A stretch of DNA of 64,000 bases from positions 20,496-84,495 of the forward strand of contig CBFIJH010000009.1 of the NCBI GenBank assembly GCA_965662895.1. The letters are read 5' to 3'. This document shows, one piece after another, positions 3,001 to 23,638 of this stretch. Each line of letters opens with the position of its first letter. Position 1 is the stretch's first letter. This stretch comes from Candidatus Poseidoniaceae archaeon. Its GTDB lineage: Archaea; Thermoplasmatota; Poseidoniia; Poseidoniales; Poseidoniaceae. Below the pieces are notes generated by a model. It made no database searches and was not told the DNA's origin. It saw only the letters and a program-made list of their open reading frames with translations. The position numbers and the translations under genes were made by a program.

Positions 3001-3448
3001 TGCCACCGGAAGAAATGTATTGATCCCAACATGTGTTGGAGCCACAACCTGAGTTCGGGTTGGCATCTCCGAAGGAGGTTTTCGGGGCACCCCCTGTCTC
3101 TTTGAGGTGGCTTACGCCGTAAATCGGCGCAATGTTTCCAGCCTCTGAATCAGCGGTATTTCCAAAATTTGCGCTGTGGTACGAGATGTAGACATATCGG
3201 TCTGGCAGAGAGTTCTTTGCTTGATTGTGAGCTGGGCTACCGTATTGGTAACAATAACCGCAGTTATCCGAGGTAATGTACTGCGCGAAAACAGTGTGAC
3301 CTGGGTCCGATGGTGCGGCTTGCACAAGCTGTGCGTCTTGCAAAACTTGGGGCTCGTGTGGGTTCTGTTCCTTGGCTAGGCCAATCATCAAACTACCGAC
3401 GAACAGTAAGACAATTCCAATCGCAGTAAAACGCGTGCTGACTCTCAT
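1..3448 (-). CDS. Large membrane-anchored surface protein (partial, runs off left edge): signal peptide, thioredoxin/Omp28-like CxxC domain, CARDB and cadherin-like Ig repeats, TM helix, Pro-rich cytoplasmic tail
   Basis: Not in ORF track (no stop in window). Manual translation from ATG 3448: MRVSTRFTAIGIVLLFVGSLMIGLA...YITSDNCGYCYQY...ISYH; later VKVNPINDAP cadherin-like motif, TM WMLILAVVGGVLFVALAFGLMIRR, ends in the same frame at ...GPPLPPGGLPAGWT at position 2. Confidence 0.85.
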   Translation of the reverse strand, partial: MRVSTRFTAIGIVLLFVGSLMIGLAKEQNPHEPQVLQDAQLVQAAPSDPGHTVFAQYITSDNCGYCYQYGSPAHNQAKNSLPDRYVYISYHSANFGNTADSEAGNIAPIYGVSHLKETGGAPKTSFGDANPNSGCGSNTCWDQYISSGGNMHNSAPYYSLTVAQTDNGDGTTTIDISAKYTGSGTAPSSLVLYAAVTEKVCNSHAYVDGSKGGNCWESWLLNNGGYTSGSGSIVNGGTGFETVNLASGTASKVWTVPTNLVSGGTSNMNTVAALYSTWSTSNNGASVYAASDSTMAPRMDLSVPSFVVSSPAGSSYIQGDVLTLDATISNSGDLDYNNGGTAKFFYVLNGVKNYIGQGTPIGAMATTGATSTMNAQETFDTSTLSTNSWKTVFGLELQTNGESVLSNNVATGDLDHDRPPKSKTPQVIGTSEISRGQYFSVLAKGDADDFVDTIDTLTFDIEISKAGAGQWSGEAVTGGDNILYPGSANEGREYSILPTVDMPAGLYDLRSRTVDARGQTSGWSIATSAFDLMNAPPSIAPNQVSPVQCDMSTKVDLTGIVSDPESPLYDLTISSNDANFVGWHPSTTEVEVLFAWDPVQGCPLGSQGIEIFMDDGGDYSNEGQLPYGTLLFNVLENGQPRWQALPTQIVDEGGMGTLSLLPFLSDTDDEGNVAQASDLSLEILSTSNTDVFNAFLDTSNIVFQTLDDDVNGEVTITIRASDGEQFSDQTLLVKVNPINDAPRLDLTGLEQTTLKLGTQRVINLMALLTDVDDPANEAFITVSSDEQGAAKYNPIDGTMTLNFQSSGLHQVTVNTIDRYDTNTYTMTVDVFDSYPLYISKVDDGSGHVYVDMQDTYIGQIPTANIFLTDMAPTFTVIETTWNVCNDETGTCDGLYEEDLDITRSMVGWSTELNIDSLFLPGEYARPTGSMYKDYYQLTIMAVDTNGDDYKSVASVKWNILEELPAPAEMEDEMLTNYIDRLKEEIEALETSSAEATTDAEKEEINLVLEDKRSQYSVACEDPRADCPSEQIQSGAESGDGSGDTNWMLILAVVGGVLFVALAFGLMIRRDGDEKLHVPEATWTETTLPIHDTVANSMYGGAAPIFQQPIPQPVVQPVVQPVAQAVAPPMPAPVVSGPPLPPGGLPAGWT

Positions 3449-3466
3449 AATAGTTCCACGACCACT

Positions 3467-3478
3467 CATTATATAATG
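3467..3478. promoter_or_regulatory. Palindromic TATA-box-like element CATTATATAATG in divergent intergenic region
   Basis: Perfect 12-bp palindrome; TTATATAA core lies 21-28 nt upstream of the ATG at 3448 (minus strand), typical archaeal TATA spacing for a leaderless mRNA. Confidence 0.5.
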
Positions 3479-7300: not shown

Positions 7301-8340
7301 TAGTTCGGATACAGTGTAGGGTTCATGGCATCGCCACTGCGTCGCCCCCAGGTCATCATCAGCATCATTGCTGCGCCTTCCGAATCAATTCGTTCTCCGA
7401 GATTGATGCTACCGTTTTTGCTGGCGAGCCAATCTGAATTCGTTCTGTAAAAACCAGGCACTTGGGATTGATCTTGGACGATTACCGTATCCCAAACACC
7501 GGTCGCAAGCGACAGGTTTTGTTGGCTTGCTGATGTGTTGACATCGTCCCAATGATCCGAGATTTTCCAACCGCCTGAGGTAAACGCCGAAGTGTTGCTC
7601 GGGCTGTCAGCACTTCGAAGAAGTTCCTGAAGCATGGAGGAGAGACCGTTCGCAGAGGTGTACGAGTTTCCGAAGAGAAGAACATCACTGACCGATGCGG
7701 ACCAGGACGGAGGTGCCGTACTTGTGTTGGACTGACCACTCGACGAGTAGTTCTCCCACCAACCAGTCAGGTCAGGTTCTTCTCCGACCTCGAGAAGATA
7801 GGAATCCATGACTGAACCATGATTGCTTACCGAGATTGCAACATCAACAGATTGACCAGGCTCGATGGCCAATAAACCCTGATCACCGACACCTGTCGCA
7901 TCGAGATGTGGATTGTAGACGATGGCAACGCTAACGTACACATCAATCGACGTAGAAGCACTACCGTCACTTTCACTCACAGTGATTGTGAACATCCCAT
8001 TGTCGCTTGGCGTTGCAGTTTCTGCCAACTGAACGAGGATTGTTGTTGTTGCATTGTAGGTTGGTAAAACATTCGAAACTGAGTTGGAAGTTGGAACTGC
8101 AGTCCACAAAGAAGAGAGCCCTGTTGTTGCTGTTGCAACATCGTAGGTTTCAATCGATGAACCATTGTTCTCGATGGTTAGGGTTAGATTCATGGATTCT
8201 CCGGGTATGAGAATCATGTGCGTCATGTCAACTTGCAACTCGATTTCTGGGTCAGCCCTGGTCAATTGTGCGAGAGGTGAAGCACTCGCAAACAGCATCA
8301 TTCCAACCAAAACGAACGCACGAATGGAGAGTTTCGACAT
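4354..8340 (-). CDS. Secreted multi-Ig (NEW3/COG1470-like) surface protein with inserted SGNH hydrolase domain, C-terminal TM and cytoplasmic Zn ribbon
   Basis: Signal peptide; repeated N-x-G-x-x-x-D/E-x-F/Y Ig motifs; VLLFGNSYT...QDQS...DGSHPS SGNH motifs; TM then acidic linker, CPSC...CPTC. Confidence 0.8.
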   Translation of the reverse strand: MSKLSIRAFVLVGMMLFASASPLAQLTRADPEIELQVDMTHMILIPGESMNLTLTIENNGSSIETYDVATATTGLSSLWTAVPTSNSVSNVLPTYNATTTILVQLAETATPSDNGMFTITVSESDGSASTSIDVYVSVAIVYNPHLDATGVGDQGLLAIEPGQSVDVAISVSNHGSVMDSYLLEVGEEPDLTGWWENYSSSGQSNTSTAPPSWSASVSDVLLFGNSYTSANGLSSMLQELLRSADSPSNTSAFTSGGWKISDHWDDVNTSASQQNLSLATGVWDTVIVQDQSQVPGFYRTNSDWLASKNGSINLGERIDSEGAAMMLMMTWGRRSGDAMNPTLYPNYTVMQDLLEQGYIDYRDNVSLSTPADIYIAPVGLAFKHIHDSIVASGGNPLAPSSTFYGLYSADGSHPSTSGSYLSACVLFAALTGDSPVGLTDNTSLDATLRLTLQQTAAEVVFNGSSTYAYPWEASAAIAATNQHSGFPTGWEVRWLDDQVENLTANGQETATLRISIPSDASPGATGVRLYAGSLFGNLTTSTLMVIDVQADYDLQVDFLNSSDEFLPGQQTNSSLRLTNIGTTEASYDYALTVLSGPCSAALLAYESTIGISATEDVGFQVDVVSTANVGDVCSLRFTATLASDTSVTFVRDFSFEVDKKIAFVLQGPNGPKVIEPSTETTIEVRVFNTGTEAETFSLQVNSNASSPISLVLDSASSVSVPADASAVWTLKATASEGSLGAYERIVTVTHDSLLEQNLSLAFDVQPLASLNLQGPVDGRVVVQSGNNAAVTILIENDGTSDLLLETFTIAGLPGGVSAILPDVDQYSLEAGATHNVSFEVTASAATSARTDALTLRLYAGEIEALLVIELQVVDRTLAQLSPNTNQIIAGPSASTNVTIEVTNIGTLQDTFLLAIGAGETSNYFDVTLSKTSVNLGIGQSETVVLSVRETAIGASENGLPINIVATSTLDPESTDVTLLTLFPMTAGSDIEVYVDDSITEASDTLSGTLTVRNTGNSADSFSLSSVGLDCEIESSFLLQPGGRTSELPWTCDIPSNALAGTNAFSFRAISSARSDAVENEVVSFTIEATWDTNSVVRIDVANQDFSIPYLGGSSTTVTVTNLANIAISGKLTLVGIGEGVLDDRWNNTLGELTDAFSLEPGASEIFVVRMNSLTTDETDAEIRIRALVQIDGSSVNAESQPISIRVEGEPQAPEGVTLLGVELAKDTTLQLMATGYILFALAVVLLRLRKPRSAVEEIDDEPEEEEEEIKQYALGPNECRMDTNRRISCPSCEARLAVPGGNEPPFRFTCPTCDSSIRVVEYGSAPKF

Positions 8341-9949: not shown

Positions 9950-10705
9950 TTGGCCATCATGCCGGTTGACCGTATGCAATGGGGTGCGAAACCTTGGCAA
10001 CATGCAGATTTGCACATGCCCGATGAGCCCTCACCATTCCAAAACGACCATGGCGTGCCATGCATCATGCTGATTCACGGTGGCTTCTGGAAAAAGCAGT
10101 ACACTTCTGAACTCATGCAACCCATTGCAAACGCCCTCAGCGATGCCGGTGTTGCAAGTTGGAACATCGAATTCCGAAGATGGGAGGACGGTGATGAAGG
10201 CGTATGGATGGACACACTTTCCGATGTTCTTCGGGCGTGGGGTCAACTTGCGCTCCTTCCGGGCATCGACATCACGCGAAGCATGGTGATGGGACATTCT
10301 GCAGGCGGTCATCTCGCTCTCCTGATGGCAAGCAAAGCTGAACGAAAACCATGGCTCGCTATTGCGCAAGCACCGATTACAGATTTGTTCGGAGCGGACG
10401 ATGCGAAACTCAGTGATGAAGGAGATGCAATACGGAAGTGGATGGGTTGCAGCCCATACGAGAATGAAGCATTGTGGAAAAAAGTCAACCCTATCGAACT
10501 GTCTCCAAAAGCCCCAGTCCTGTTGATTCATGGTGAGCGTGATGTCGACGTACCGCTTGAACAGAGCGAGACCTATGCAAGAGCAATGAAGGCGAAGGGA
10601 TGCGATGTTCAGAAACTCTGGTTACCCGGTGACCACTACACGATCATTGATGCTGCGAGCGATGATTGGTTGGTCCAACAAGATGCAATCCTCGATTGGT
10701 TGTGA
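9950..10705 (+). CDS. Alpha/beta hydrolase (HGGxW, GHSAG; esterase / kynurenine-formamidase-like)
   Basis: IHGGFW oxyanion motif, GHSAGG nucleophile, HGERDVDVP Asp, GDH His; starts 1 nt after aspS stop (ATG 9959 alternative). Confidence 0.8.
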   Translation: MAIMPVDRMQWGAKPWQHADLHMPDEPSPFQNDHGVPCIMLIHGGFWKKQYTSELMQPIANALSDAGVASWNIEFRRWEDGDEGVWMDTLSDVLRAWGQLALLPGIDITRSMVMGHSAGGHLALLMASKAERKPWLAIAQAPITDLFGADDAKLSDEGDAIRKWMGCSPYENEALWKKVNPIELSPKAPVLLIHGERDVDVPLEQSETYARAMKAKGCDVQKLWLPGDHYTIIDAASDDWLVQQDAILDWL

Positions 10706-10722
10706 GTGCGAACCACTAAATC

Positions 10723-11556
10723 ATGGTGGCTGGTCGTGAGAATATGGACCTTTTAGGCGAACATGCCGTTCTTCGAAACAATGCATTGGATGGAAAAACC
10801 GCTCTTGTTTGTGGTGCAAGTCGCGGCATTGGTGCAGCAACTGCGCGAATCATGGCGAACGCAGGTGCGAACGTCATCGTTTCTTCGAGAAAGAAAGAGC
10901 AACTCAATTTGCTCTTGGATGAGTTGAAACAACTTGGAGGCGGCAAACACCAAGCCCTCGTCATGGACCTAGAGGATACAGATTCGATCAACACCACCAT
11001 TCAACCATTGATCGATAAGGGTCCCATCCATATCCTCGTCAACAACTCGGGCGGCCCGCCCGGCGGACCACTGTTGGATGCTACGGTTGAAGAATTGGCT
11101 CAACCATTCACTCGGCACCTTCATGCAGCCCACACACTGGTTAAACTGCTCACACCTGGCATGATTCAAGCAAACTATGGGCGGATTATTCAGATCGTTT
11201 CAACCAGTGTTCGTGAACCAATTCCAAATCTCGGAGTTTCCAACACATTGCGTGGAGCAATGGCATCATGGGCCAAATCGTTGTCTCGAGAGTTGCATCC
11301 TTGCATAACAATCAACAACGTATTGCCCGGTTTTACGGATACGGAACGTTTGGAGAGCCTCGCACAATCCATCCATGAACGAACGGGTCAATCCATTGAA
11401 GAAATTCATGATGGTTGGATGAGTCAAGTCCCCATTGAACGATTGATTGACCCTCACGAGACTGCTTCAACGATTGCTTTTCTCGCATCACCTGCAGCAG
11501 GAGCGATTCGCGGCGTATCACTACCTGTTGATGGTGGTCGGTTGCGAAGCATCTGA
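10723..11556 (+). CDS. Short-chain dehydrogenase/reductase (atypical SDR)
   Basis: ALVCGASRGIG Rossmann motif, ILVNNSGGPPGG, SNTLR in place of YxxxK, NVLPG, VDGG. Confidence 0.85.
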   Translation: MVAGRENMDLLGEHAVLRNNALDGKTALVCGASRGIGAATARIMANAGANVIVSSRKKEQLNLLLDELKQLGGGKHQALVMDLEDTDSINTTIQPLIDKGPIHILVNNSGGPPGGPLLDATVEELAQPFTRHLHAAHTLVKLLTPGMIQANYGRIIQIVSTSVREPIPNLGVSNTLRGAMASWAKSLSRELHPCITINNVLPGFTDTERLESLAQSIHERTGQSIEEIHDGWMSQVPIERLIDPHETASTIAFLASPAAGAIRGVSLPVDGGRLRSI

Positions 11557-11617
11557 GCACGCGGAGAACCCCAACCCACCATTGATGACTATAAGCCACT
11601 GTGTTGGACATCGGATT

Positions 11618-11785
11618 ATGGGGCACCTCAACGACGTTGGCATGGGATATTTTCAGCACCTCTTTGGAGCATTTAAACTCGGATTGCGGTTTTTCCTTGG
11701 AACGATTCAACTCTTCATCCACGGATTGTTTCCAAATGTGTTTGTTGATGCGGGAAAGAATACATCAGAAGCCTACAAAAGGTAA
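11618..11785 (+). CDS. Small His-containing membrane-associated protein (DUF6356-like), 55 aa
   Basis: MGHLNDVGMGYFQHLFGAF...FIHGLFPNVF; fills gap between SDR and permease; 3' half of track ORF 11447..11785. Confidence 0.55.
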   Translation: MGHLNDVGMGYFQHLFGAFKLGLRFFLGTIQLFIHGLFPNVFVDAGKNTSEAYKR

Positions 11786-11790
11786 TCGAG

Positions 11791-13203
11791 TCACTCTTTT
11801 CGAGAGGTCAGCAAAGCGCGGAACGTCTGGAACGGTGTTTCAGCGTGGGTGAATTGTTTCTTTCCATAGAGGTAGTAGGTTAGAAGACCTGCTCCAATTG
11901 CTGCAGACGCTCCGATGAATGCCTTGTCTCCAATGAAATAAATCAAAAACAAACCAGCAAGAATTCCCCACAATTGCATGAATGGGTAAAGAATGCCTTT
12001 GTACGAAGGGTTCCAATCGTGTCGATCGCTTGTTTGACGAAGTACAATGACACATGTGTTGATCATGATGAAGATCATGATCTTGAACCCTGACGCTAAT
12101 TTTACGACATCTTTCAATGGAACGAAGAAAATTGCCAGACCCATGGCGAGCCCAGTGATGATGATTGGCCAGTGAGGTGATTCATACTTGGGGTGAACAC
12201 GCTCAAGTGCTGGTGGCAGCAATTTGTCCTGTCCCATTGCAAACAGGAAACGGGATGAGGCAAGAATACCTGCAAGCGCCATAGAAATCATAGCTAGAAC
12301 AGAGATGATGGCTGCGAAGATTCCAAACTCTGTTCCCGCAACTTTCTCTGCAAAGACAAATATCGGATTTTCCACAACCTTTCCGTCGGCACCAACCCAC
12401 CATTCTCCGGGTATCGCTGCCATCATCAAAAATGCGAGAACGGAATAGATAATGGTCGCAAAAAGGAGCGACAGAAGCATTCCTGCTGGCAGGTTCTTTT
12501 CAGGATCTTTGACCTCACCACCGATGGCTGCTACTTTGGTCACACCAGCATAGGCTACGAATACAAAGGCGGATGTTTCAGCAAGCGTCCACAGATCCGC
12601 TTCAAAAGCTGCTTTGAACGGTCGGCCAGCATCAAAATCGTCGACAAAGAATGCTGCTATGCAGATAATGACAAACATGGCGAGTGTGAGGAACAAAATG
12701 GGTGTTTGAATGGCTTTTACCTTCTTTACACCGAGGATGTTGATAATGGTAATCAAGACCAAGGCGCTCATGGAGAGAACCATCATTTCCATATCGACGT
12801 CAAAATAGGTCGTCACTGCGATAAAATACGCAGAAAAGCCAATCAGAGAGAAGCCCGATTTTAACAAAAACGAAGCCCATAATCCCAGGCCACTTATGGT
12901 TCCGACCATCGGCCCATAAGTCCGCTCGAGGTAGACGTAAGAACCACCACTTGACGGCATTCCTGATGCCAATTCAGCCTTGGAGATTGCCGCTGGCAGG
13001 ACAACCGCTGCAGCGACAATGAATGCAAGCCAAATCCCTGCACCCATGATATCAGCTGCAAACGTTGGTGTAACGAAGATTCCAGGAAGCATGGCTGAGA
13101 GAGAAATGATAACGACGCCAGCAAGACCAACGCTTCGCTTGAGCGTCTTCTTGACGGCATCAGTGCCCTTTTCAACAATGGTATCGAGTGCTGAGATTGG
13201 CAT
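11791..13203 (-). CDS. APC-family amino acid/polyamine permease
   Basis: ~12 hydrophobic segments, LKRSVG, AELASGMPSSGGSYVY, FVAYAG, EVKDPEKNLP, SRFLFAMG. Confidence 0.9.
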   Translation of the reverse strand: MPISALDTIVEKGTDAVKKTLKRSVGLAGVVIISLSAMLPGIFVTPTFAADIMGAGIWLAFIVAAAVVLPAAISKAELASGMPSSGGSYVYLERTYGPMVGTISGLGLWASFLLKSGFSLIGFSAYFIAVTTYFDVDMEMMVLSMSALVLITIINILGVKKVKAIQTPILFLTLAMFVIICIAAFFVDDFDAGRPFKAAFEADLWTLAETSAFVFVAYAGVTKVAAIGGEVKDPEKNLPAGMLLSLLFATIIYSVLAFLMMAAIPGEWWVGADGKVVENPIFVFAEKVAGTEFGIFAAIISVLAMISMALAGILASSRFLFAMGQDKLLPPALERVHPKYESPHWPIIITGLAMGLAIFFVPLKDVVKLASGFKIMIFIMINTCVIVLRQTSDRHDWNPSYKGILYPFMQLWGILAGLFLIYFIGDKAFIGASAAIGAGLLTYYLYGKKQFTHAETPFQTFRALLTSRKE

Positions 13204-13312
13204 TTCTAGAACCCCGATTTCGTGAAAGAACCACGCTTACAATCACCTACAATCCGATAAAGGATATATGTTCTTGCATTTTTTGAGGATACATATTGCC
13301 GGAATCCGGAAA

Positions 13313-14713
13313 TCAAATCTTTGCGATGACCTTCATCTCAACCGCAATCGGCGTTGGAAGTGCACGAATCGCTAACGTGGTTCGTGTTGGCCCATAATGA
13401 CCAAGCGTTTCAGCCCAAACTTCGTTGTATCCTGCGAAATCACGGTCCATATCAACCAAGAATGATGTCACATCAACAACTTTGTCCATCGAAGAACCTG
13501 CTTCCTCAAGAATTCGTGCTATATTTTCAACCACAGCGCGTGTCTGTGCTTTGATGTCATAGTCCAGTGGTTGGCCGTCACCATCACGGATGGGACCGCC
13601 GGGAATGGCGTTGGTACCGGGTTGTCGGGGACCGACGCCCGAAAGATAGAGAAGTTCACCAACGCGCCGAGCATGAGGATACAATCCGACTGGTTTTGGA
13701 GCAGAATCGGTGTTCACTGCATCCTTGCCTTCGGCAGGATCCCACAATGCAGGACCTGAATCTGTTGGAGATTGAACCTCTTCTTCGATGGAGCCGTCAC
13801 CATCGAGAACATTACGCTCACCGTGATAGACGTCAACATCATCCTCATCATATTCTTTGTCACCCATTCCATTGGATGTTGGATCAAGATGGACAACAGC
13901 ACCACCTGCACCGTGAAGAGCCTCGTAGGCAAGAACACGTCCAGTCAAATCGTTGCGGTTGTCGTTCATTGCAGACAACCACCACATTGGCTTGAAGGTA
14001 ACAACCTTCTGCACACGGATTTGCTGATGGATTGTTCGAGAAAGTTGTGCAACGTCTTCAAGTCGTCCTTCCTCAAGGAATTCCAGAACTTTCCTGTTCC
14101 ATTCATCGTCCTTGAGCGAGTGTATTTTATCATCCGAAGGTTCGATAAATTCCGTAAACATTCGATTCGACATCGACATCGCAGTGACTGCAACTGCTTT
14201 TTTCCCCGTTGAAGCAAGCACATCCAAGCATGCTTTTGCAAGAACGGTTGTCTCAGCGCGATTCGCATAGACATTCGATGAAACAATCACGGCTGGAATC
14301 GCATTCTCTGGGTTTAGTAATTTCAATGCAACAACCGAACCAACATCGATTGGGAAGCCGTTGTAGGCAACGGTTCGACTCTGTAAGCCCCGTGCATGGT
14401 TGGCTTTGTTCCAGGCTTCTGCAAAGTCCGAATCGATTCGAAACGAATACTCCATCGAACCCAAATCATGGAAGTCTTGGTCGACCAAGGTCCACGTTGG
14501 ATTTGGATCGGCTTGAATCTGATGGCCAATAATGCTCGGCCATGTCGTTGAATAGATGATCAGCAAATCCGCATCGCTTTGGGAAATTTGTTGACGTGCT
14601 TCATCAAATGCATCACGAAGTCGTTGCCATCCCTCATTCTGTTCAGGAACCAACAGTGGATGAGGATGAACTGGAACAATATAGGAACCAAGGATTGAAT
14701 CGGACACGTTCAA
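13313..14713 (-). CDS. amnA: Fusion: 2-aminophenol 1,6-dioxygenase alpha subunit-like (LigB fold, non-catalytic) + RidA-family 2-aminomuconate deaminase-like domain
   Basis: N-part: IYSTTW, GFPIDVG, SSN-x-Y, DDEWNRKVL as in AmnA/CnbCa; C-part (~13720-13313): APKPVGLYPHARRVGELLYLSG...PTRTT...VEMKVIA (RidA with catalytic Arg); ATGA overlap with amnB. Confidence 0.85.
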   Translation of the reverse strand: MNVSDSILGSYIVPVHPHPLLVPEQNEGWQRLRDAFDEARQQISQSDADLLIIYSTTWPSIIGHQIQADPNPTWTLVDQDFHDLGSMEYSFRIDSDFAEAWNKANHARGLQSRTVAYNGFPIDVGSVVALKLLNPENAIPAVIVSSNVYANRAETTVLAKACLDVLASTGKKAVAVTAMSMSNRMFTEFIEPSDDKIHSLKDDEWNRKVLEFLEEGRLEDVAQLSRTIHQQIRVQKVVTFKPMWWLSAMNDNRNDLTGRVLAYEALHGAGGAVVHLDPTSNGMGDKEYDEDDVDVYHGERNVLDGDGSIEEEVQSPTDSGPALWDPAEGKDAVNTDSAPKPVGLYPHARRVGELLYLSGVGPRQPGTNAIPGGPIRDGDGQPLDYDIKAQTRAVVENIARILEEAGSSMDKVVDVTSFLVDMDRDFAGYNEVWAETLGHYGPTRTTLAIRALPTPIAVEMKVIAKI

Positions 14714-15606
14714 GCCCCCTCATGGAGATAACAGGGCCATTCAACAATGGCATTCCCAGTTCCAATAATGGTCCCATAGCCATGAAGAATGGCAGGATAG
14801 GATGGCACAGTCAGCGTGCTCAACAACCAAGTGAGCCCTCCACCGTCGGATTCAGCAATCGCTTGTTCGGTGAATTCTGGCATTTCATCAATGATGCGTT
14901 GTGCCTGGCCGCTTCGCATGTAATCGATGATTCGCATGTCCCAAAGATGCATGGCATGGCTGGTAATGTGTTCCTTGCTCATGTCTTCGGGCACCTCTGA
15001 TTCCGTGGTAAAATGTCGGTGAGAAAGCGAATTGGATGCGAGTACGACTGCTTTCTTCCCGCTTTCAAGAATCGCTTCGCGAGTTACTCGACCAAGCTCC
15101 ATCATCATTTCTTGCATCACTTCAACGGAGTAGTAATGCCTTGAGCGATTTGAGGAAATGACAACCAACGGTTTGTCGAATGCTGGATTGACCATATGAC
15201 CGGTTGTGATTGTACCATAATCAACGCGGAAATCAGGATTGTTCATCATCTTCACAGCAAGGCCAGAATCGGCTGCTTTGTCGTGAATAGCTTGACTCAA
15301 TTCAACATCGATGTTGAGATCGTAGGAATATCGAAACAGATTGGGGAAGATGGGATCCACCGAGAGTCCTTCGAAATGCGGAAGACCGAGAAAATGTGTC
15401 CCTACATAGGTCTGCCAATGGGGCGAAAGGATAACGAGAACATCATGCTCAACCTTTGCGAGAGATTCTCGCAGTCGTTCATAACCCCACCGGAGTTGTT
15501 CCCATCCGCCCTCGGATGTGGGTTCGTTCTGGGGAGGATTCTCAGCATAGACAAGATGGGGAGGGTGTGGTGCAAGGCAACCCGCAACAATCGAACCTTT
15601 GGCCAT
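14710..15606 (-). CDS. amnB: 2-aminophenol 1,6-dioxygenase beta (catalytic) subunit
   Basis: LAPHPPHLVYAENPPQNEP..GGWE.LRW.YER, SPHW, SVDPIFPNLFRY, FRVDYGTITT, SNSLSH, IAE, YGTIIGTGNA; Fe ligands and catalytic His/Tyr retained; start moved to ATG 15606. Confidence 0.92.
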   Translation of the reverse strand: MAKGSIVAGCLAPHPPHLVYAENPPQNEPTSEGGWEQLRWGYERLRESLAKVEHDVLVILSPHWQTYVGTHFLGLPHFEGLSVDPIFPNLFRYSYDLNIDVELSQAIHDKAADSGLAVKMMNNPDFRVDYGTITTGHMVNPAFDKPLVVISSNRSRHYYSVEVMQEMMMELGRVTREAILESGKKAVVLASNSLSHRHFTTESEVPEDMSKEHITSHAMHLWDMRIIDYMRSGQAQRIIDEMPEFTEQAIAESDGGGLTWLLSTLTVPSYPAILHGYGTIIGTGNAIVEWPCYLHEGA

Positions 15607-15687
15607 AGTTCGACCAAACATAGGTCGCATATGGATGCATCGCATGTGAAGGCTAAACCTCAAACGAGAAGGGTTTGAGCACGCATT

Positions 15688-16197
15688 ATGTCGGGGGCCG
15701 AGATGGATGCAATTGCATCCGATGAGGAATTCTCATCGGTCGAAGACAACTCAGAGGTGACTGGGAACGAAATCTTTGCCGATATGCTTCGACATATGAT
15801 GGCCCCGCTTCTGATTGGAATGCTTTTTGGAGGGATATGGCAACTTACTGTGATGCCAAGAATTGATACCTTTGTACCAAATCCAGTTCATGGTGCTTTT
15901 GCATTGTACCTCGTTTTGTCACCAGTGATTTACAAACAGCTTGTTGGGTTGGAAATGAGTCGAGCGGGTGAGTACGCCATGGGATTTGCCGTCACTGCCT
16001 GCATCCTTTCACTCGTCTGGATGTTTGGTAGCTCCTCCCTCTACCTTGGAGGTTTCATCCCATCGATTGCGTGGCTCTTTATCAGTTCATTTTGGCTTCA
16101 ATTTGAGTTCCCACCGTTCCGATACGGTTTGTGGCATGGTATGGCCGTGAACATCGGCGGATTTGGTGGAGGCGTTCTCGCCTTCATTTATTTCTAA
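15688..16197 (+). CDS. Hypothetical integral membrane protein
   Basis: Acidic N-terminus then ~5 hydrophobic segments; fills gap between amnB and panB. Confidence 0.7.
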   Translation: MSGAEMDAIASDEEFSSVEDNSEVTGNEIFADMLRHMMAPLLIGMLFGGIWQLTVMPRIDTFVPNPVHGAFALYLVLSPVIYKQLVGLEMSRAGEYAMGFAVTACILSLVWMFGSSSLYLGGFIPSIAWLFISSFWLQFEFPPFRYGLWHGMAVNIGGFGGGVLAFIYF

Positions 16198-17015
16198 GAC
16201 GTGTAGGATTCCGAGGCATTGGGGAAGTCTCCGGAACGAACATCATCACAATACGATCGGATTGCTCCTTCAATATCTTCAGCAAGGTTGAGATATCGAC
16301 GAAGGAAACGTGGCGAAAAATCCATCGTGATTCCAAGGAGATCGTGCAACACCAAAACTTGTCCATCACAGTGCGGCCCTGCACCTATTCCTATGACAGG
16401 GATGCTCAATTCTTTCTGCACTCGCTGAGCGAGTTCCTTTGGAATCTTCTCGAGAACAATCGCAAAGCAACCTGCTTCTTCCAACAACTTCGCATCAGCG
16501 ATTAACTTTTCAGCCTCTTCGTCTTCTTTTGCCCGGACCGTGTAGGTTCCAAATTTGTAAATGCTCTGAGGGGTTAATCCAAGGTGACCCATCACAGGAA
16601 TTCCAGCAGTCAAAATACGTTCGATGGATTCGACAACCTCTGAGCCGCCTTCGAGTTTCACAGCATGGCCTTCGGCTTCCTTCATGATTCGAATCGCACT
16701 TTCGAGAGCTTGCCTTGAGTTCCCTTGGTACGTTCCGAAGGGCATGTCAACAACAATCAGCGCTCGATCGACTGCACGTTGTACGCACTGTGCGTGGTAA
16801 ATCATGTGGTCGAGGGTCATCGGTACCGTGGTTACCTGACCTGCCATGACATTGGAAGCAGAATCACCTACGAGGATAACGTCCACGCCTGCTGCATCAA
16901 CAAGCCTTGCAAGCGAATAGTCGTAAGCCGTGAGCATGGTGATGGGCTCGTTGGCTCGCTTCATCTCCTGAAGTGTATGCGTGGTAACTTTTGTTGCCTT
17001 ACCATGAACCGACAT
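16194..17015 (-). CDS. panB: 3-methyl-2-oxobutanoate hydroxymethyltransferase
   Basis: MLTAYD, LVGDS, DMPFGTY, VKLEGG, GHLGLTPQS, IGIGAG..DGQVLV. Confidence 0.95.
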   Translation of the reverse strand: MSVHGKATKVTTHTLQEMKRANEPITMLTAYDYSLARLVDAAGVDVILVGDSASNVMAGQVTTVPMTLDHMIYHAQCVQRAVDRALIVVDMPFGTYQGNSRQALESAIRIMKEAEGHAVKLEGGSEVVESIERILTAGIPVMGHLGLTPQSIYKFGTYTVRAKEDEEAEKLIADAKLLEEAGCFAIVLEKIPKELAQRVQKELSIPVIGIGAGPHCDGQVLVLHDLLGITMDFSPRFLRRYLNLAEDIEGAIRSYCDDVRSGDFPNASESYTS

Positions 17016-17070
17016 TGTTCTGCCCCATGCTTCCGACTGAATTCAACATTTCAAAGGCTCGCCGGCAAAA

Positions 17071-18516
17071 TCAATCATGTTTGATGCAAACATTCAGTGG
17101 TTCGGAAAAGAATGCGAGACTCCAATCGCCACCTTCCCGACCAACACCTGAATTCTTTACACCTCCAAACGGTGTTCGTAGATCTCGATGGAGCCAGGTG
17201 TTGACCCAGACAATACCTGTCTCAATTTGTTTGGCAAGTTCATGGGCCCGGTCCGTATCCTTCGACCAGATCGATCCTGCGAGTCCATAGTCGGTTGAAT
17301 TTGCAATATCGATGGCCTCTTGGTCGGATTCAAATCTGTGGATTGTCACAACCGGTCCGAAAATTTCCTCCGTGGAAGTTCGGGAAGTGTGGTCCAATCC
17401 ATCAATAATCGTTGGCCGAAGATAGGCACCATTGGCGTTCGGTCCGACCGGCCCGGTCATTTTGCGCGTTCCTCCGACAAGAACGGTTCCTCCTTCTTCA
17501 ATTCCAAGTTCGATGTAGGACTCGACTTTGTGCATGTGATCTTGGCTGATGAGCGCACCGATTTGTGTTGAAGTATCTCGAGGATCGCCACACGTCATCT
17601 TCTCAACAGATTTGACAAGTTTTTCGATGAATTCGTCTGCAATCGATGCATGAACGAGAATTCTCGAACCGCACAAACACACCTGACCTCCGTTGGTAAA
17701 CCCAGCACGTACCGTCCCCTCAACAGAACGGTTGATGTCTGCATCATCAAGGACAATCGTCGCATTTTTACCGCCCAATTCCAATGAGAGTTTCTTGAAC
17801 ATTGGTGCTGCGGTTGCGGCAACATGACGACCTGTTGCCGTCCCTCCAGTGAATGAAATCGCTCCGATGAGCGGGTGTTCAAGAATCGATTGACCAACTT
17901 CAGGACCGTATCCATGAACGACATTGAGGACGCCTGGTGGCAGGCCAATTTCATTGGCAACCTCACAAAGAAGATTGGCAGTAAGCGGTGTCAATTCACT
18001 CGGTTTAGCCACAATGGTATTCCCCATCAACAAAGCGGGTGCAACCTTCCAACTGAGCAAATACAAGGGAAGATTCCAAGGCGTAATCAAGCCAACCGTT
18101 CCAATCGGTTTTCGGTGGATAATGTTAACGGCATCGTTCATTTCGAATGTTTCAGGTTCTCGATTTCGGGCAAAATCAGCAAAGAATCTGAAATTTTCAA
18201 TGGACCGTTGCGCATCAACTCGACGAGCCAATGCTAACGGTTTGCCTGTATCCCTCGATTCCCGCTGAGCGAGATCTTCTTTCCTTGCCTCAAGTCCGTC
18301 CGCAAGGCGATCGAGCCAATCGGCACGCTCGAGCATCGTGAGGTCCGACCAATCCTTTTGCGCAAGCCTTGATGCTTGAACAGCCGCATCAACATCGGGG
18401 CCTTTCGAGCGAGCAATCGTTCCAATGATGTCCCCTGTTGCAGGATTGATGTTGGGAATGGTATCTCCATCCAAGGCATCAACAAACCTCCCTGCGATGA
18501 AATTTAACGCATTCAT
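17071..18516 (-). CDS. amnC: Aldehyde dehydrogenase, 2-aminomuconate/2-hydroxymuconate semialdehyde dehydrogenase (AmnC/ALDH8A1-like)
   Basis: ITPWNLPLYLLSWKVAPAL, FTGGTATG, LELGGKN, GQVCLCGSRI, EEIFGPV, W..RDLRTPFGGVK.SG.GREGG subfamily signature; context. Confidence 0.8.
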   Translation of the reverse strand: MNALNFIAGRFVDALDGDTIPNINPATGDIIGTIARSKGPDVDAAVQASRLAQKDWSDLTMLERADWLDRLADGLEARKEDLAQRESRDTGKPLALARRVDAQRSIENFRFFADFARNREPETFEMNDAVNIIHRKPIGTVGLITPWNLPLYLLSWKVAPALLMGNTIVAKPSELTPLTANLLCEVANEIGLPPGVLNVVHGYGPEVGQSILEHPLIGAISFTGGTATGRHVAATAAPMFKKLSLELGGKNATIVLDDADINRSVEGTVRAGFTNGGQVCLCGSRILVHASIADEFIEKLVKSVEKMTCGDPRDTSTQIGALISQDHMHKVESYIELGIEEGGTVLVGGTRKMTGPVGPNANGAYLRPTIIDGLDHTSRTSTEEIFGPVVTIHRFESDQEAIDIANSTDYGLAGSIWSKDTDRAHELAKQIETGIVWVNTWLHRDLRTPFGGVKNSGVGREGGDWSLAFFSEPLNVCIKHD

Positions 18517-19634
18517 GAATTCATCTCCGAGTCATACAACCATCGGTCTTGATCCGGATCCCACTCGTCCCATGTTGGAATTGTTTTGAGAACATCGATG
18601 TACCGGTCAGGAACAATTCCTGGAACAATAAACGCTTTTTGTCGATGCAAGGGGTAAGGATTTCTCAAATCAATCCCAAGGACGCCAAGAATGGCCCGAG
18701 CAACATACCAGGTCGCTTGTGCATTCCAACCGTGAGCAATTTTAATCACGATGCCTAAGCCGTTGGGATAATCAGGATGCTCTATCGCAAGTCCGAGCAA
18801 TCCATCCGCTCCTTCTTTTGCAATGACTGAACCTTCACCAGCCTTGAGGATTGTTGAATCCAAACGATTGAAACCACCAACAAGGTCAGGATGACGAACC
18901 ATCGCTTCCCAAATCCAATCCTCATTTTTGTCTCGCACGAGGCCAGCATAAATCTGTGCAAGTTCGGCAACTGTGTTGGAAACTGTTGGCAAACCACAAC
19001 CATCTTTGGCAATTCTCAGTGGTTCCCAATCGCTTCCAATAAATCGTCGTATTTGCGACATGTATGCTCCAAACACTTGATGTGTTGGTAAGGTGTATCC
19101 CGCACGATTCCAACCCTTTTCCCTGCAACCGCGGAGTATAGCAGCATGCTCGCCTGAGCATGTGTGATACCAACGGCGAGGACGACGTACCTGACGACCA
19201 AATTGAATCAGAGGGACATCAAGTGGAGTCAACATCAGTGGCCATTCGGATTCTGACAACAAGGACTGGGCAGCTGATACGTGTTCGGTGTCTCCATTGT
19301 GGCTTGCGACAGAAATTGCCTTTTGCTCCCAAGACAAGTCGTCCAATTCTTTGACGAAGGCCTTGAGCATGAATGGCTTCATCATTGAACGACCATAACA
19401 AAGCACGTTTCCTCCAAATGAATGAATCACTTCATCGCCATGTGACCAAGCAACTGCTCCATGGATTGTCGTTTCGGAAACACCATTGCGTCGATAGTCA
19501 ACCAAAGGCTCCCATGCGACATCTCTTCCGGTTGGGATACCCTCAACTTGTTCACCAAGTGGAGAATCTGGAAACAATTCACTTCCAGGTTGACCCGGTT
19601 TTACGGCTGAATGGTTGTGATGATCAATCCGCAT
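18513..19634 (-). CDS. Class 3 (Rhizobium etli-type) asparaginase-fold amidohydrolase, divergent
   Basis: RSMMKP, ASHNG, TCSGEH (canonical NCSGKH), DGCG, AKEGADG, KIAHG; ATGA overlap with ALDH. Confidence 0.8.
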   Translation of the reverse strand: MRIDHHNHSAVKPGQPGSELFPDSPLGEQVEGIPTGRDVAWEPLVDYRRNGVSETTIHGAVAWSHGDEVIHSFGGNVLCYGRSMMKPFMLKAFVKELDDLSWEQKAISVASHNGDTEHVSAAQSLLSESEWPLMLTPLDVPLIQFGRQVRRPRRWYHTCSGEHAAILRGCREKGWNRAGYTLPTHQVFGAYMSQIRRFIGSDWEPLRIAKDGCGLPTVSNTVAELAQIYAGLVRDKNEDWIWEAMVRHPDLVGGFNRLDSTILKAGEGSVIAKEGADGLLGLAIEHPDYPNGLGIVIKIAHGWNAQATWYVARAILGVLGIDLRNPYPLHRQKAFIVPGIVPDRYIDVLKTIPTWDEWDPDQDRWLYDSEMNS

Positions 19635-19636
19635 CT

Positions 19637-20866
19637 TTAGTCACCTTTGAGCAACTCTTCGACCCGTGGCGCTACCTTTTCCATGTACGCTTTCATGTTC
19701 CGACAAACGCGCTCGCTATCATGATTAAAAAAATCAAACCAAGCCATCACTCGATCATCTGGATGAAATCGTTCAACAAGTTGCTGGGCAACATCTTCGA
19801 CATTCCCAATCAACGCATTTTGTGCAGCATTCTGAACTTTTGAGGGGTCAATCGTACCTTCAAGAGCGTTCCAATAAGCACCAAGCGCTTGTTGAGCCTC
19901 ATCATGCGCTGCCGAGCGCTGCTCCTCAGGGGAAAGTCCTGTCTCATCGTTGAGGAATACAAAGCTGGTACGGGGCATGTCCGAACGCTTCCAAGTACCT
20001 CCATCAGGATGGAAGCAAGCACGCATACGTTCATGCGTCGCTTCAATGACTTCAGGTTGTGTAATTGAGAGATTGAACACACGAACGGGTAGGATTGAGT
20101 TGACAAAGACCTGAGCCTTTGGGTCGTGGGTCCCAGCAACCAACACAAGTTGATTCCTATCGAATGTGTTCGGAACGATTCGAATGTCTTCAAAGACATA
20201 GCGCCGGTCGATTGGTATCGCATCAGCCTCCGATTGACTCGCCTCTTGAACACGCTTCCAATCTTCATCACTCCTGAAATTCTCGCGAGTTAAGATTGTT
20301 GAGCGAACGGAATCCGATGCGACAACATCACCTCGCAAAAGGCGAAGAAAGATTTCACTCGCTTCAAGGAAAATTTGACCACGCAGTGCAGGCCATGCTG
20401 CCTCTTCAACTGGCGTTCGAGGTACAATTCCGTAAGGACGGGCCATGAATTCGAATCGACCTGCAGAAAAACCAACATGGAGGCGACGTGTGTCCTCGTT
20501 CACTGCAAGAAGCTGCAGCGTGTTGGCTATTCGTTCTGCTTGAGCAATTGGACCTCCAGATGCGAGAATTGATACTACAGCACTCCCGATTTCGATGTTT
20601 TTTGTTCTTCGAAAAGATTCCATTGCAAGTTGTGGGAAATCCGTACACAGACCAACTTCTCCTTGCCAATGTGGAACAACTGGCTTTGAGTTTGATTTTT
20701 GTGTCTCAGTGGAGAGATGTGCTTGCGCAATCCATCCGACTCCGAACCCCAACGCATCTGCACTCTCCAATTGTTGGAAGTAATTCCGAAGCATGGTCCG
20801 TTCATCGGGGATGTGCCCTTCTGCATCAGGTGTTTGACTAATGGAAAAGAAAATGTCGTGTTCCAT
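19637..20866 (-). CDS. Luciferase-like (LLM class) flavin-dependent oxidoreductase/monooxygenase
   Basis: ADALGFGVGWIAQAHL, TKNIEIGSAV, PIAQAE, RLHVGFSAG, LIGNVEDVAQQL; start at ATG 20866 preceded by SD GAGGTGA. Confidence 0.8.
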   Translation of the reverse strand: MEHDIFFSISQTPDAEGHIPDERTMLRNYFQQLESADALGFGVGWIAQAHLSTETQKSNSKPVVPHWQGEVGLCTDFPQLAMESFRRTKNIEIGSAVVSILASGGPIAQAERIANTLQLLAVNEDTRRLHVGFSAGRFEFMARPYGIVPRTPVEEAAWPALRGQIFLEASEIFLRLLRGDVVASDSVRSTILTRENFRSDEDWKRVQEASQSEADAIPIDRRYVFEDIRIVPNTFDRNQLVLVAGTHDPKAQVFVNSILPVRVFNLSITQPEVIEATHERMRACFHPDGGTWKRSDMPRTSFVFLNDETGLSPEEQRSAAHDEAQQALGAYWNALEGTIDPSKVQNAAQNALIGNVEDVAQQLVERFHPDDRVMAWFDFFNHDSERVCRNMKAYMEKVAPRVEELLKGD

Positions 20867-20917
20867 GCCCCTCACCTCTTTTTTCCAAACCGTCAAAGAA
20901 CATAATCCGTTCGCACC

Positions 20918-21748
20918 TTACTTGACCTTTTCATCAAGGGAAGTAAGGGCATGGAGTCGTTGCTTTAGAAGGTCAGGCGCAGCTATTCCCAATTGCATGA
21001 AAAGATGCATCGTATCGGATAGAACGAGAAGCGCGTCGTCGTAACGGGTTTCAATTTCTGCAAGGTCAGCAAGCCCCCAACTTGCGACGAGATGACCAGC
21101 AGGATGTTCGAGTCGTTTTGCCAAATCGAGGCTTTGATCGTACATTTCAGATGCAGTCGCAAGTTCTCCGAGACTCGCCTGAGCGTGAGCAACATCAGCG
21201 AGGGCTTCCATGTGGAGAACATCGTTTTGCATGGAGATGGCCAATTCAAGTCGACGCGTATCGTGAACAATTGCGGAATCCCAATCTTGATTCAATCGAG
21301 AACAACGAGAGAGTACTGCAAGACCGTAGATGATACCTTCCTTGTCGTCAATCGATTCTCGCAAGGTTAACGATCGTCGAACCGATGTTTGTGCAGATTC
21401 AGTCTCTTCAATCGAGAGAAGCATGAGTGCGTGATGATGCAAAACAGCCGCTGCAAGTGGTTCTCCTTTGTCCAGAGATTCAGCAAGAAAAGCAAGTTCT
21501 GCAACATCATCAATTGAGCCGGAATTTCGTTTGAGATGCTCGAACCGGGCCCAACCTTTCTCGATATCGTTCTCAGCAACCTTTTGGGCATGGGCGACCA
21601 ACCGGTTGAGCAGTTGATGGTCACCAATCGATTCGACAAGCGGCAAAATACCTAGAGCAAGCGACGTATTGATGCCATCAATTGACCCACCTCCAGTCAG
21701 CATCTCGACGATTTCTCTCGCCTTTTCAGGTGAGACCTCTTCTGCCAT
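20918..21748 (-). CDS. Tetratricopeptide-repeat protein
   Basis: Helical repeats such as LADVAHAQASLGELATASEMYDQSLDLAKRL. Confidence 0.7.
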   Translation of the reverse strand: MAEEVSPEKAREIVEMLTGGGSIDGINTSLALGILPLVESIGDHQLLNRLVAHAQKVAENDIEKGWARFEHLKRNSGSIDDVAELAFLAESLDKGEPLAAAVLHHHALMLLSIEETESAQTSVRRSLTLRESIDDKEGIIYGLAVLSRCSRLNQDWDSAIVHDTRRLELAISMQNDVLHMEALADVAHAQASLGELATASEMYDQSLDLAKRLEHPAGHLVASWGLADLAEIETRYDDALLVLSDTMHLFMQLGIAAPDLLKQRLHALTSLDEKVK

Positions 21749-22808: not shown

Positions 22809-23638
22809 TTCGTAGAGCTTCGGTTCCTGGACGAATCAACATCATCGGCGAACATACCGATTATGCTGGAGGTTGTTCGCTTGCGTTCGCCTCGCAACAT
22901 CGCCTCATCCTCGAAGCAGAATTCATTGATTCTGGATGTATCGGAGATGAAACCGTCGTTGCTCTCTGGAAAGAAGGAGGGGGCCCTCCAGCAAAACTCA
23001 ATGTTCAGAGTACGATACCTATCGGTAAAGGCATGTCCTCTTCAGCAGCATTGTGTCTGAGTATCGTACTCTGCATTCATGGAAACTCCATCGACAGCCA
23101 AGCTGTATGTCTCGAAGCACAACGATTGGAACATACCGTTCTTGGAACGCCTTGTGGACTCCTTGACCAAATGACAATGATGCATTCACGTGAAGAACAT
23201 TGCACAATGATTGATTTTTCAACATTCGAAACGAACGTCCTGCCATTTCCAGAATCATGGATCTTTCGAATCGTTGATTCTGGAGTTCATCGAACATTGC
23301 GATCAGTGGAGTATCGTCAAGAGGGCGATGAGACAATACGGAAACTGCACGTTAAGAATGAAAACGCTCGAGTCAAAAAAGCAGTCCATTGTACAAAAGA
23401 AGAATTGGGACGTCTTCTCAACGAATCGCATGACTCATTGGTCAGCATTGGCGTAAGCACACCGGAGGTTGATGCACGGGTTCAATTCCTTCAAAATCTG
23501 GAAGGGGTCCTTGGTGCACGGATGATGGGCGGAGGATTTGGCGGCATGATTCTCGTGCTTGTTGAAGGAGAACATGTCCTTTCCGAACATCCAATGGTCG
23601 TTCCCTCAGGATCTGGTTTCGTTGAAGAATTGGTCTAA
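22805..23638 (+). CDS. galK: Galactokinase-family GHMP sugar-1-kinase (short form)
   Basis: PGRINIIGEHTDY, IPIGKGMSSSAAL, CGLLDQ, GARMMGGGFGG; ATGA overlap with DNase gene. Confidence 0.8.
   Translation: MIRRASVPGRINIIGEHTDYAGGCSLAFASQHRLILEAEFIDSGCIGDETVVALWKEGGGPPAKLNVQSTIPIGKGMSSSAALCLSIVLCIHGNSIDSQAVCLEAQRLEHTVLGTPCGLLDQMTMMHSREEHCTMIDFSTFETNVLPFPESWIFRIVDSGVHRTLRSVEYRQEGDETIRKLHVKNENARVKKAVHCTKEELGRLLNESHDSLVSIGVSTPEVDARVQFLQNLEGVLGARMMGGGFGGMILVLVEGEHVLSEHPMVVPSGSGFVEELV

Follow-up and report, generated by a model that had tools for sequence, protein, structure and literature searches.

What use does a planktonic archaeon have for enzymes that open the ring of 2-aminophenol, and from what would its 2-aminophenol be made? 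This question is raised by a 64,000-nucleotide stretch of the genome of a member of Candidatus Poseidoniaceae (Marine Group II), referred to here as the window, which at positions 9950 to 21748 contains a predicted 2-aminophenol ring-cleavage module together with a divergent luciferase-like monooxygenase (LLM), an asparaginase-fold hydrolase of the Pfam family PF06089, and a short-chain dehydrogenase/reductase (SDR). These genes are probably the archaeal version, in rearranged form, of an operon that occurs widely and serves tryptophan catabolism without kynureninase. That the set catabolizes tryptophan through 2-aminophenol-type cleavage can be proposed with good confidence; for the chemistry in between, we lean towards a specific mechanism of Baeyer-Villiger oxidation by the LLM and release of aspartate by the hydrolase. 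The two ends of such a pathway, tryptophan 2,3-dioxygenase (TDO) and the amn-type module, are already known, and its middle part would be new and represent a third exit from kynurenine. To our knowledge, all aerobic routes described so far leave kynurenine through kynureninase or kynurenine monooxygenase (KMO). The accessible part of the literature searched, which lies largely outside the subscription journals, contains no description of a route from kynurenine to 2-aminophenol or of these genes in Poseidoniales.

The gene set in archaea and bacteria

The genome that contains the window (1.86 Mb in 26 contigs, 92% complete) encodes TDO at the end of contig C10, as shown by a family search (4.8e-62). 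It is the only member of the canonical kynurenine pathway found in this genome: the sole match of the kynureninase (KynU) model is SufS, the only sizeable FAD_binding_3 protein seen in the search for KMO is a geranylgeranyl reductase, and the same genome yields no 3-hydroxyanthranilate dioxygenase (3-HAO) over the cut-off, no aminocarboxymuconate semialdehyde decarboxylase (ACMSD), and no KynB. With TDO present and the classical steps not found, the organism would make N-formylkynurenine without any known route for its disposal. Within positions 1 to 9000 of C10, TDO is located beside genes that resemble those of aromatic amino acid biosynthesis, as judged from their first residues only.

The connection with tryptophan is explicit in bacteria. 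A scan of species-representative genomes with an alignment of bacterial LLM relatives gave 316 loci, and the best 80 of these, all of them bacterial, come from Myxococcota, Planctomycetota, Acidobacteriota, Bdellovibrionota, metagenome-assembled genomes (MAGs) labelled Pseudomonadota, and six actinomycetes. Their typical gene order is TDO-SDR-LLM-hydrolase-ALDH-AmnB-AmnA::RidA-KynB (as in L071, L072, L076, and L089), where ALDH is an aldehyde dehydrogenase and AmnA::RidA is a fusion protein. All genes of the set are on the strand of the LLM gene except for four copies of TDO (25 of 29 are codirectional). Searches with tblastn, using the window proteins, KynB, and a second type of TDO found in those loci, give the following counts, which are lower bounds, for the 80 loci and for a subset of 28 non-actinomycete loci that extend for 8 kb or more to each side:

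Hydrolase: 59 of 80 loci; 26 of the subset of 28
SDR: 58 of 80; 22 of 28
ALDH: 55 of 80; 23 of 28
AmnB: 44 of 80; 21 of 28
AmnA: 40 of 80; 21 of 28
RidA domain: 35 of 80; 17 of 28
KynB: 35 of 80; 19 of 28
TDO: 29 of 80; 10 of 28
TDO or KynB: 51 of 80; 23 of 28

One of the KynB copies scores 207 bits on the arylformamidase model TIGR03035 (cut-off, 223). The presence of TDO and KynB in these operons points to tryptophan, through kynurenine, as the source of the aminophenol, rather than to anthranilate, 3-hydroxyanthranilate, or a xenobiotic. Kynureninase does not score over its cut-off in any of 18 operon-bearing non-actinomycete bacterial genomes (2.5 to 10 Mb; completeness not established). 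It does so in both of two actinomycete genomes, whose LLM loci are devoid of amn genes. In the six actinomycete loci (L031 to L036), the LLM is 45 to 50% identical, a PF06089-like neighbor (28 to 29% identity) is found in two, and a TDO-like match is found in three; here the enzyme pair may serve another purpose. Among additional genes, only extra copies of TDO and separate RidA genes exceed 12 of the 80 loci. The other recurrent neighbors (M24 peptidase, GNAT, DEAD helicase, and OMP decarboxylase) are apparently unrelated flanks, and the conserved neighbors of the 80 loci include no flavin reductase, 4-oxalocrotonate decarboxylase, hydratase, or aldolase.

In Poseidoniales, the set is nearly universal. 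Among 41 genomes of the order, which represent 3 families and 11 genera and include that of the window, 40 have AmnB, 39 have the hydrolase, 38 have the LLM, and 38 have TDO, with the misses mostly in incomplete assemblies. These are planktonic organisms with genomes of 1.3 to 2.1 Mb. Searches of 20 Poseidoniales loci with the window proteins (tblastn) show a compact codirectional arrangement in the other families, SDR-LLM-hydrolase-ALDH-AmnB-AmnA(::RidA)-APC-PanB (L011 and L013). In some archaeal loci, amnBA is located apart from an SDR-LLM-hydrolase block. The LLM and the hydrolase are adjacent in archaeal genomes wherever both are found, even with amnBA elsewhere, and they form the constant pair of the gene set. 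The recurrence of this association in 20 archaeal and 80 bacterial loci is far beyond chance.

The archaeal proteins are close to those of the bacterial operons, with identities of 69 to 79% for the hydrolase, 52 to 68% for AmnB, and 49 to 63% for the LLM. In a FastTree phylogeny of 89 LLM rows, with the root assumed on the actinomycete clade and no bootstrap or topology test behind the tree, the ten archaeal rows, which come from two of the three Poseidoniales families, form one clade with an SH-like support of 99. This clade is nested in bacterial sequences, beside a Myxococcota MAG, which fits a single acquisition of bacterial genes by an ancestor of the Poseidoniales sampled.

A preliminary description of the window had proposed that the LLM and the hydrolase make an ortho-aminophenol that is opened by a LigB-type dioxygenase, and the present data support this proposal. 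Both genes are codistributed with amnAB across the order and occur with it in bacterial operons, and no complete canonical kynurenine route is found elsewhere in the genome, only TDO. Among the sources of the aminophenol that it considered, tryptophan stands, with kynurenine as the intermediate and TDO and KynB in the operons, and anthranilate and 3-hydroxyanthranilate do not. The TDO gene on another contig was absent from that description, as was the membership of the SDR and of an HGGFW-containing alpha/beta hydrolase in the same set.

The window and its enzymes

According to the open reading frame (ORF) listing and family scans, the region from 8.5 to 22 kb opens with the gene for aspartyl-tRNA synthetase (plus strand), followed by the alpha/beta hydrolase. 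The genes from there on are as follows:

9950-10705, plus strand: alpha/beta hydrolase of 251 residues with HGGFW and GHSAGG motifs
10723-11556, plus strand: SDR (adh_short_C2, 4.1e-37)
11791-13203, minus strand: APC permease (AA_permease_2, 3.2e-36)
13313-14713, minus strand: AmnA::RidA fusion (Pfam LigB and Ribonuc_L-PSP)
14710-15663, minus strand: AmnB (PDB 8ihg_A, 2.7e-112)
15688-16197, plus strand: ORF of 169 residues with no Pfam or NCBIfam match
16194-17015, minus strand: PanB (family scan)
17071-18516, minus strand: ALDH of the AmnC/NbaE type (PDB 4u3w, 1.6e-142)
18513-19634, minus strand: PF06089 hydrolase (161.7 bits, 2.9e-47)
19637-20896, minus strand: LLM ORF, with 19637-20866 as the probable gene (fold and profile)
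20918-21748, minus strand: TPR protein (TPR_12, 7.3e-8)

All the genes named in the preliminary description are thus present where it placed them, and its statement that TDO, KynU, KMO, 3-HAO, and ACMSD are absent holds, as none of them matched within the window. Two of its three gene junctions are confirmed, the ATGA overlap of the hydrolase and ALDH genes and the 2-nucleotide gap between those of the LLM and the hydrolase; the third, an ATGA overlap of amnB and amnA, is instead TTGA or a GTG start immediately past the stop codon. The set is interrupted by PanB and the family-less ORF (together, 15688-17015). Given the compact form in the other families, the arrangement in the window, with the SDR gene inverted and PanB inserted, is a derived, reshuffled version of a single gene set. 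The ORF of 169 residues, flanked by amnB and panB, which are encoded on the other strand, is 60 to 79% identical in five loci of the same genus, with none seen in the other families. The TPR protein, 76 to 90% identical among the loci of the genus, is a conserved neighbor of the LLM in the order, with a copy of 25% identity between the SDR and LLM genes in L013; none is seen in the bacterial loci.

AmnB matches the beta subunit of 2-aminophenol 1,6-dioxygenase over residues 20 to 310 (8ihg_A as listed; 3vsg_B, 9.5e-108; 7txy_B, 1.2e-93) and is approximately 60% identical to genuine 2-aminophenol dioxygenases. The PDB alignments begin at residue 20 of the query, and the ATG at that residue, at about position 15606, is the probable start. 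The abutting amnA encodes the paralogous alpha subunit. The N-terminal 280 residues of its product match 7txy_A (6e-38 over residues 7 to 245) and 3vsg_A (8.7e-38); this part is the non-catalytic alpha subunit, and it is fused to a RidA-type 2-aminomuconate deaminase. Of some 50 RidA chains matched by the C-terminal part (about 130 residues, 335 to 464; Pfam Ribonuc_L-PSP, 5e-25), the top one is the 2-aminomuconate deaminase 6izh (2.9e-25), and the RutC chain is far weaker (3.3e-5). The fusion is found in 20 of the 80 bacterial loci; in L012, AmnA and RidA are encoded by two genes, that for RidA immediately downstream of the other. For the ALDH, the seven best PDB matches are all 2-aminomuconate 6-semialdehyde dehydrogenases (AMSDHs), from 4u3w through 4i1w (2.7e-139) down to 3e-133, and betaine aldehyde dehydrogenases rank next (1e-113). 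Its score on the NCBIfam model TIGR03216 is 558.9 bits, under the cut-off of 693. On these sequence matches, AmnB, AmnA, the deaminase, and AMSDH can be firmly assigned to a ring-cleavage module in which AmnBA would be a 2-aminophenol 1,6-dioxygenase with the corresponding ring-opening activity.

The protein that the preliminary description called an LLM is one by fold and family profile, although it falls under the gathering threshold of the Pfam family PF00296 (14 versus 27.9 bits; E value, 0.032). Its start is most likely the ATG at 20866, behind the GAGGTGAGGGG stretch, which gives 409 residues, as in its database relatives. It belongs to a small family of its own, with 315 relatives at an E value of 1e-3 or below among 1.84 billion cluster representatives. 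A profile of 51 members reaches the bacterial luciferase 8cbb at 3.3e-6. The AlphaFold2 model built on a 51-row alignment has a pLDDT of 92 (35 for the single-sequence model), and Foldseek matches it to 2i7g (1e-16). VIA-align superimposes the model on 8cbb with a Z score of 31.5 and a root-mean-square deviation of 2.7 over 319 residues. The VIA Z scores are 31.5 to 30.3 for luciferases, 30.5 for RslO1, 28.9 for 2i7g, 28.4 for the PKS/NRPS OX domain 6ket, and 27.1 and 27.0 for the diketocamphane monooxygenases 4uwm and 5aec, which are type II Baeyer-Villiger monooxygenases (BVMOs). Lower scores are seen for F420-dependent enzymes (no higher than 24.9), for RutA (24.1), and for SsuD/MsuD (approximately 23). 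The modeled protein is a TIM barrel of the LLM fold, its superfamily placement coming from fold and profile only. A common fold does not establish function, but in the luciferase/BVMO-type subgroup of LLMs, which is nearest to the model, flavin peroxide attacks carbonyl carbons, and this protein is a candidate kynurenine Baeyer-Villiger oxygenase. Dependence on F420 ranks low, F420 enzymes being structurally weaker matches to the model.

The PF06089 hydrolase matches PDB 7os3 (2.5e-16) and keeps both Ser-Lys pairs of class 3 L-asparaginase. Residues R82-S83-K86 and S111-H112 are conserved in all 70 orthologues, C159 and C213 in 68 each, and K273 in 69; the assignment of these positions to catalysis and the metal site is our mapping on 7os3. 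Position 162 is Glu in 67 of the 70 orthologues and Lys in the rhizobial enzyme, so that the Cys-Lys-Cys metal site is not retained. Class 3 L-asparaginase binds asparagine or aspartate, and conservation of its catalytic Ser-Lys residues fits the proposed chemistry, in which the hydrolase is a candidate for freeing L-aspartate and 2-aminophenol from oxygenated kynurenine.

The SDR has no YxxxK motif. All 65 cluster SDRs have SN(T/L)xR at that position and retain the Rossmann motif GxxxGxG. The protein matches NF006212 at 2.3e-52, under the cut-off, and its nearest solved chains are uncharacterized (5va8). Two roles are conceivable. It might be an NAD(P)H:flavin reductase that supplies reduced FMN to the LLM, a role suited by its fixed place, directly upstream of the LLM in the other Poseidoniales families; the ordinary flavin reductases of the same genome count against it. 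Alternatively, it might reduce the unsaturated 2-oxo acid 2-oxohex-3-enedioate towards 2-oxoadipate, which would account for the missing meta-pathway decarboxylase, hydratase, and aldolase in the genome and the operons. Three related loci of the Myxococcota type (L058, L064, and L098) have the order TDO-LLM-hydrolase-AmnB-AmnA with neither ALDH nor SDR within reach. Their joint absence hints that the SDR may act with the lower part of the pathway.

Two unrelated genes are candidates for the formamidase. The kynurenine formamidases of animals and yeast belong to the alpha/beta hydrolases and carry HGGxW. In the window, the alpha/beta hydrolase gene (Pfam BD-FAE, 8.8e-21, and Peptidase_S9) immediately precedes that of the SDR; it occurs in 23 of 25 genomes of the window genus and in none of 16 genomes of the other two families. 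A formyltransferase-like gene (245 to 251 residues, Formyl_trans_N domain), located just upstream of the SDR in the other families, shows the opposite distribution, 0 of 25 and 14 of 16; its two misses are G028 and G040, in the latter of which the contig begins inside the SDR gene. The shared position and mutually exclusive distribution make both proteins candidate formamidases and suggest that they share one job. This complementary pair at one position is a new observation here, and it represents a single replacement, in a single lineage, rather than a recurrent one. The PDB matches listed for the alpha/beta hydrolase are carboxylesterases, an MHETase, and peptidases, with no formamidase among them, so that its proposed role comes from position and complementary distribution only. 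The APC permease adjoins AmnA in most archaeal loci, but only 1 of the 80 bacterial loci has it, in opposite orientation, and it is a weak candidate for the import of tryptophan or kynurenine.

Elsewhere in the window, four very long ORFs on the minus strand probably encode giant surface proteins: 28197-37415 (3,072 residues), 55681-63999 (at least 2,772 residues), 4354-8340 (1,328 residues, with Ig-like/NEW3 domains and a C-terminal zinc ribbon), and 2-3469 (at least 1,156 residues). A 669-residue ORF at 23606-25615 (minus strand), conserved in the loci of the genus, fuses a GH1 glycosidase domain with a nucleotidyl-transferase domain.

The proposed route and its rivals

The route would start with TDO, encoded on the other contig, which would convert tryptophan to N-formylkynurenine. 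A formamidase would then release kynurenine: KynB in bacteria, probably the HGGFW alpha/beta hydrolase here, and the formyltransferase-like protein in other Poseidoniales. In the third step, the flavin peroxide of the LLM (with FMN) would attack the aryl-ketone carbonyl of kynurenine, and the electron-rich aryl group would migrate in a Baeyer-Villiger reaction, giving the 2-aminophenyl beta-ester of aspartate. This ester may undergo an O-to-N acyl shift onto the ortho amine, to N4-(2-hydroxyphenyl)asparagine. The substrate of the LLM might instead be N-formylkynurenine, with deformylation following later. The asparaginase-fold Ser-Lys hydrolase would cleave the aspartyl compound to L-aspartate and 2-aminophenol. 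AmnBA would then open the ring, the ALDH would form 2-aminomuconate, and the fused RidA domain would convert it to 2-oxohex-3-enedioate, with the SDR acting in one of its two suggested roles. RidA-type deaminases do yield 2-oxohex-3-enedioate according to one preprint, which adds that the step after 2-aminomuconate had long been unknown in eukaryotes (10.64898/2026.06.05.730449).

The Baeyer-Villiger scheme explains several features at once. Either intermediate, ester or anilide, is an aspartyl derivative at the side-chain carboxyl, the position at which an asparaginase hydrolyzes, which would account for the asparaginase fold. The scheme would likewise account for the structural subgroup of the LLM, for the absence of kynureninase and ACMSD, and for the presence of enzymes of the 2-aminophenol rather than the 3-hydroxyanthranilate type.

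Several points weigh against this interpretation. We infer every step between TDO and AmnBA, and TDO is not linked to the cluster in its own genome. The fold cannot tell a Baeyer-Villiger oxygenase from a hydroxylase, as Z scores of 27 to 31 for the model cover luciferases, RslO1, and BVMOs alike. A search of the genome for a lower meta-pathway finds no DmpG and just one generic FAA-family protein, which leaves the fate of 2-oxohex-3-enedioate unexplained. The SDR, for all its presence in 58 bacterial loci, has no necessary role in the scheme. The genome is 92% complete, and the related Poseidoniales genomes are kin and not independent observations. In G028 (96% complete), AmnB and TDO are found and the LLM and hydrolase are not, with amnB located about 500 bases from a contig end. 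The bacterial counts cover a single sample, the 80 top-ranked of 316 loci, and many of these are truncated at contig ends.

Tryptophan might also be degraded by classical chemistry with non-homologous enzymes, the LLM hydroxylating C3 of kynurenine or anthranilate, the asparaginase-fold protein replacing kynureninase, and AmnBA cleaving 3-hydroxyanthranilate. TDO and KynB within the operons agree with such a pathway, as do the AMSDH and RidA-type deaminase, which also end the classical bacterial kynurenine route in the same preprint (10.64898/2026.06.05.730449). Furthermore, LLMs include hydroxylases, several of them among the structural matches. However, this pathway needs a decarboxylase for 2-amino-3-carboxymuconate 6-semialdehyde, and none is found in the genome or among the conserved operon neighbors. 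The close similarity of AmnB to genuine 2-aminophenol dioxygenases argues in the same direction, and the C-C cleavage carried out by kynureninase is hardly to be expected of a Ser-Lys amidohydrolase. Overall, this pathway appears unlikely.

Likewise, the mixture of LLM, amidohydrolase, RidA, alpha/beta hydrolase, SDR, and permease resembles the Rut operon, and RutA is among the structural matches of the LLM (at the Z score of 24.1). By analogy, the LLM might open an amide or heterocycle (N-formylkynurenine, an N-acyl arylamine, or a benzoxazolinone-like compound), with the hydrolase, RidA, and alpha/beta hydrolase acting as RutB, RutC, and RutD. This is quite unlikely: RutA ranks under the luciferase/BVMO group, the RidA part is fused to AmnA and is best matched by 2-aminomuconate deaminase and not by RutC, the alpha/beta hydrolase is restricted to one genus, and the asparaginase fold is left without a reason.

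Degraders of nitrobenzene, chloronitrobenzene, and aminophenol are the source of the solved enzymes most closely related to AmnB, AmnA, and the deaminase, and this might indicate a xenobiotic cluster like amn, cnb, or nbz with no relation to tryptophan, in which the LLM, hydrolase, and SDR are unrelated neighbors. A set that is nearly universal in a planktonic order with genomes of 1.3 to 2.1 Mb, and that in bacteria is accompanied by TDO or KynB at 51 of 80 loci, makes this very improbable, and neither a nitroreductase or mutase among the conserved neighbors nor a lower meta-pathway has been found. Hardly credible is a role in NAD biosynthesis, with the AmnBA product cyclizing to quinolinate or picolinate: TDO without the rest of the classical route and the three loci with TDO, LLM, hydrolase, and AmnBA but neither ALDH nor SDR within reach would agree with it, but the semialdehyde dehydrogenase and deaminase indicate catabolism, 2-aminophenol does not have the carboxyl required for quinolinate, and the reading is set aside because quinolinate synthase (NadA) is present in the genome (1.4e-93).

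In its widest form, the interpretation preferred here is that a kynureninase-independent route is core to Marine Group II and several bacterial phyla; that a new LLM family cleaves kynurenine by a Baeyer-Villiger reaction and an asparaginase-fold enzyme releases aspartate and 2-aminophenol; that deformylation has been filled at least three times, by KynB, the formyltransferase-like protein, and the alpha/beta hydrolase; and that the tyrosine-less SDR supplies reduced flavin or reduces 2-oxohex-3-enedioate. The chances that all of this holds are about even. If true, it would add two activities, Baeyer-Villiger oxygenation of kynurenine and hydrolysis of aspartyl-aminophenol, and would give the "nitroaromatic" 2-aminophenol dioxygenases a natural substrate that explains their wide occurrence. 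It would also provide a function for a near-universal gene set in an archaeal group that ranks among the most abundant in the surface ocean, and would bear on the recycling of dissolved protein nitrogen.

Comparison with known systems

The 2-aminophenol clusters amn, cnb, and nbz of Pseudomonas, Comamonas, and Burkholderia, which serve modified meta-cleavage, share with the window AmnB, AmnA, AMSDH, and a RidA-type 2-aminomuconate deaminase, all at high similarity (8ihg, 3vsg, 7txy, and 6izh). In those clusters, 2-aminophenol comes from nitrobenzene or chloronitrobenzene, whereas here it would come from tryptophan. The window set fuses AmnA to the deaminase and adds the LLM, the PF06089 hydrolase, and the SDR, and the decarboxylase, hydratase, and aldolase of those clusters are not found in its own genome or among the conserved operon neighbors.

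Canonical kynurenine pathways have in common with the proposed route TDO as the first enzyme, KynB (in the bacterial operons), and AMSDH with a RidA-type deaminase at the end. One such pathway leads through KynA, KynB, and KynU to anthranilate; another, that of Burkholderia cenocepacia, runs through KMO, kynureninase, 3-HAO, ACMSD, AMSDH, and 2-aminomuconate deaminase. The ring is opened by a cupin dioxygenase there and would be opened by a LigB-type enzyme here.

The LLM shares its TIM-barrel fold with luciferase, 6ket, and the type II BVMOs 2,5- and 3,6-diketocamphane monooxygenase (4uwm and 5aec), with Z scores of 27 to 31.5 over approximately 310 to 320 residues. Its sequence identity to them is just 14 to 21%, and its substrate would be the aryl ketone of an amino acid. 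The hydrolase belongs to the same family as the class 3 L-asparaginases ReAV and ReAIV of Rhizobium etli (7os3 and 8cly), with which it shares both Ser-Lys pairs and both active-site cysteines. It differs from them in having Glu in place of the metal-site Lys, in its location within a tryptophan operon, and in its proposed substrate, an N4-aryl asparagine or aspartyl aryl ester instead of asparagine.

The Rut pathway combines an LLM (RutA), an amidohydrolase (RutB), a RidA protein (RutC), and an alpha/beta hydrolase (RutD). It has the same logic, oxygenation by an LLM and then hydrolytic splitting of the product, and its gene set likewise includes a RidA protein and an alpha/beta hydrolase. 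In contrast to the proposed route, however, the role of the hydrolase is filled by a different family, and the RidA part encoded in the window is of the aminomuconate deaminase type.

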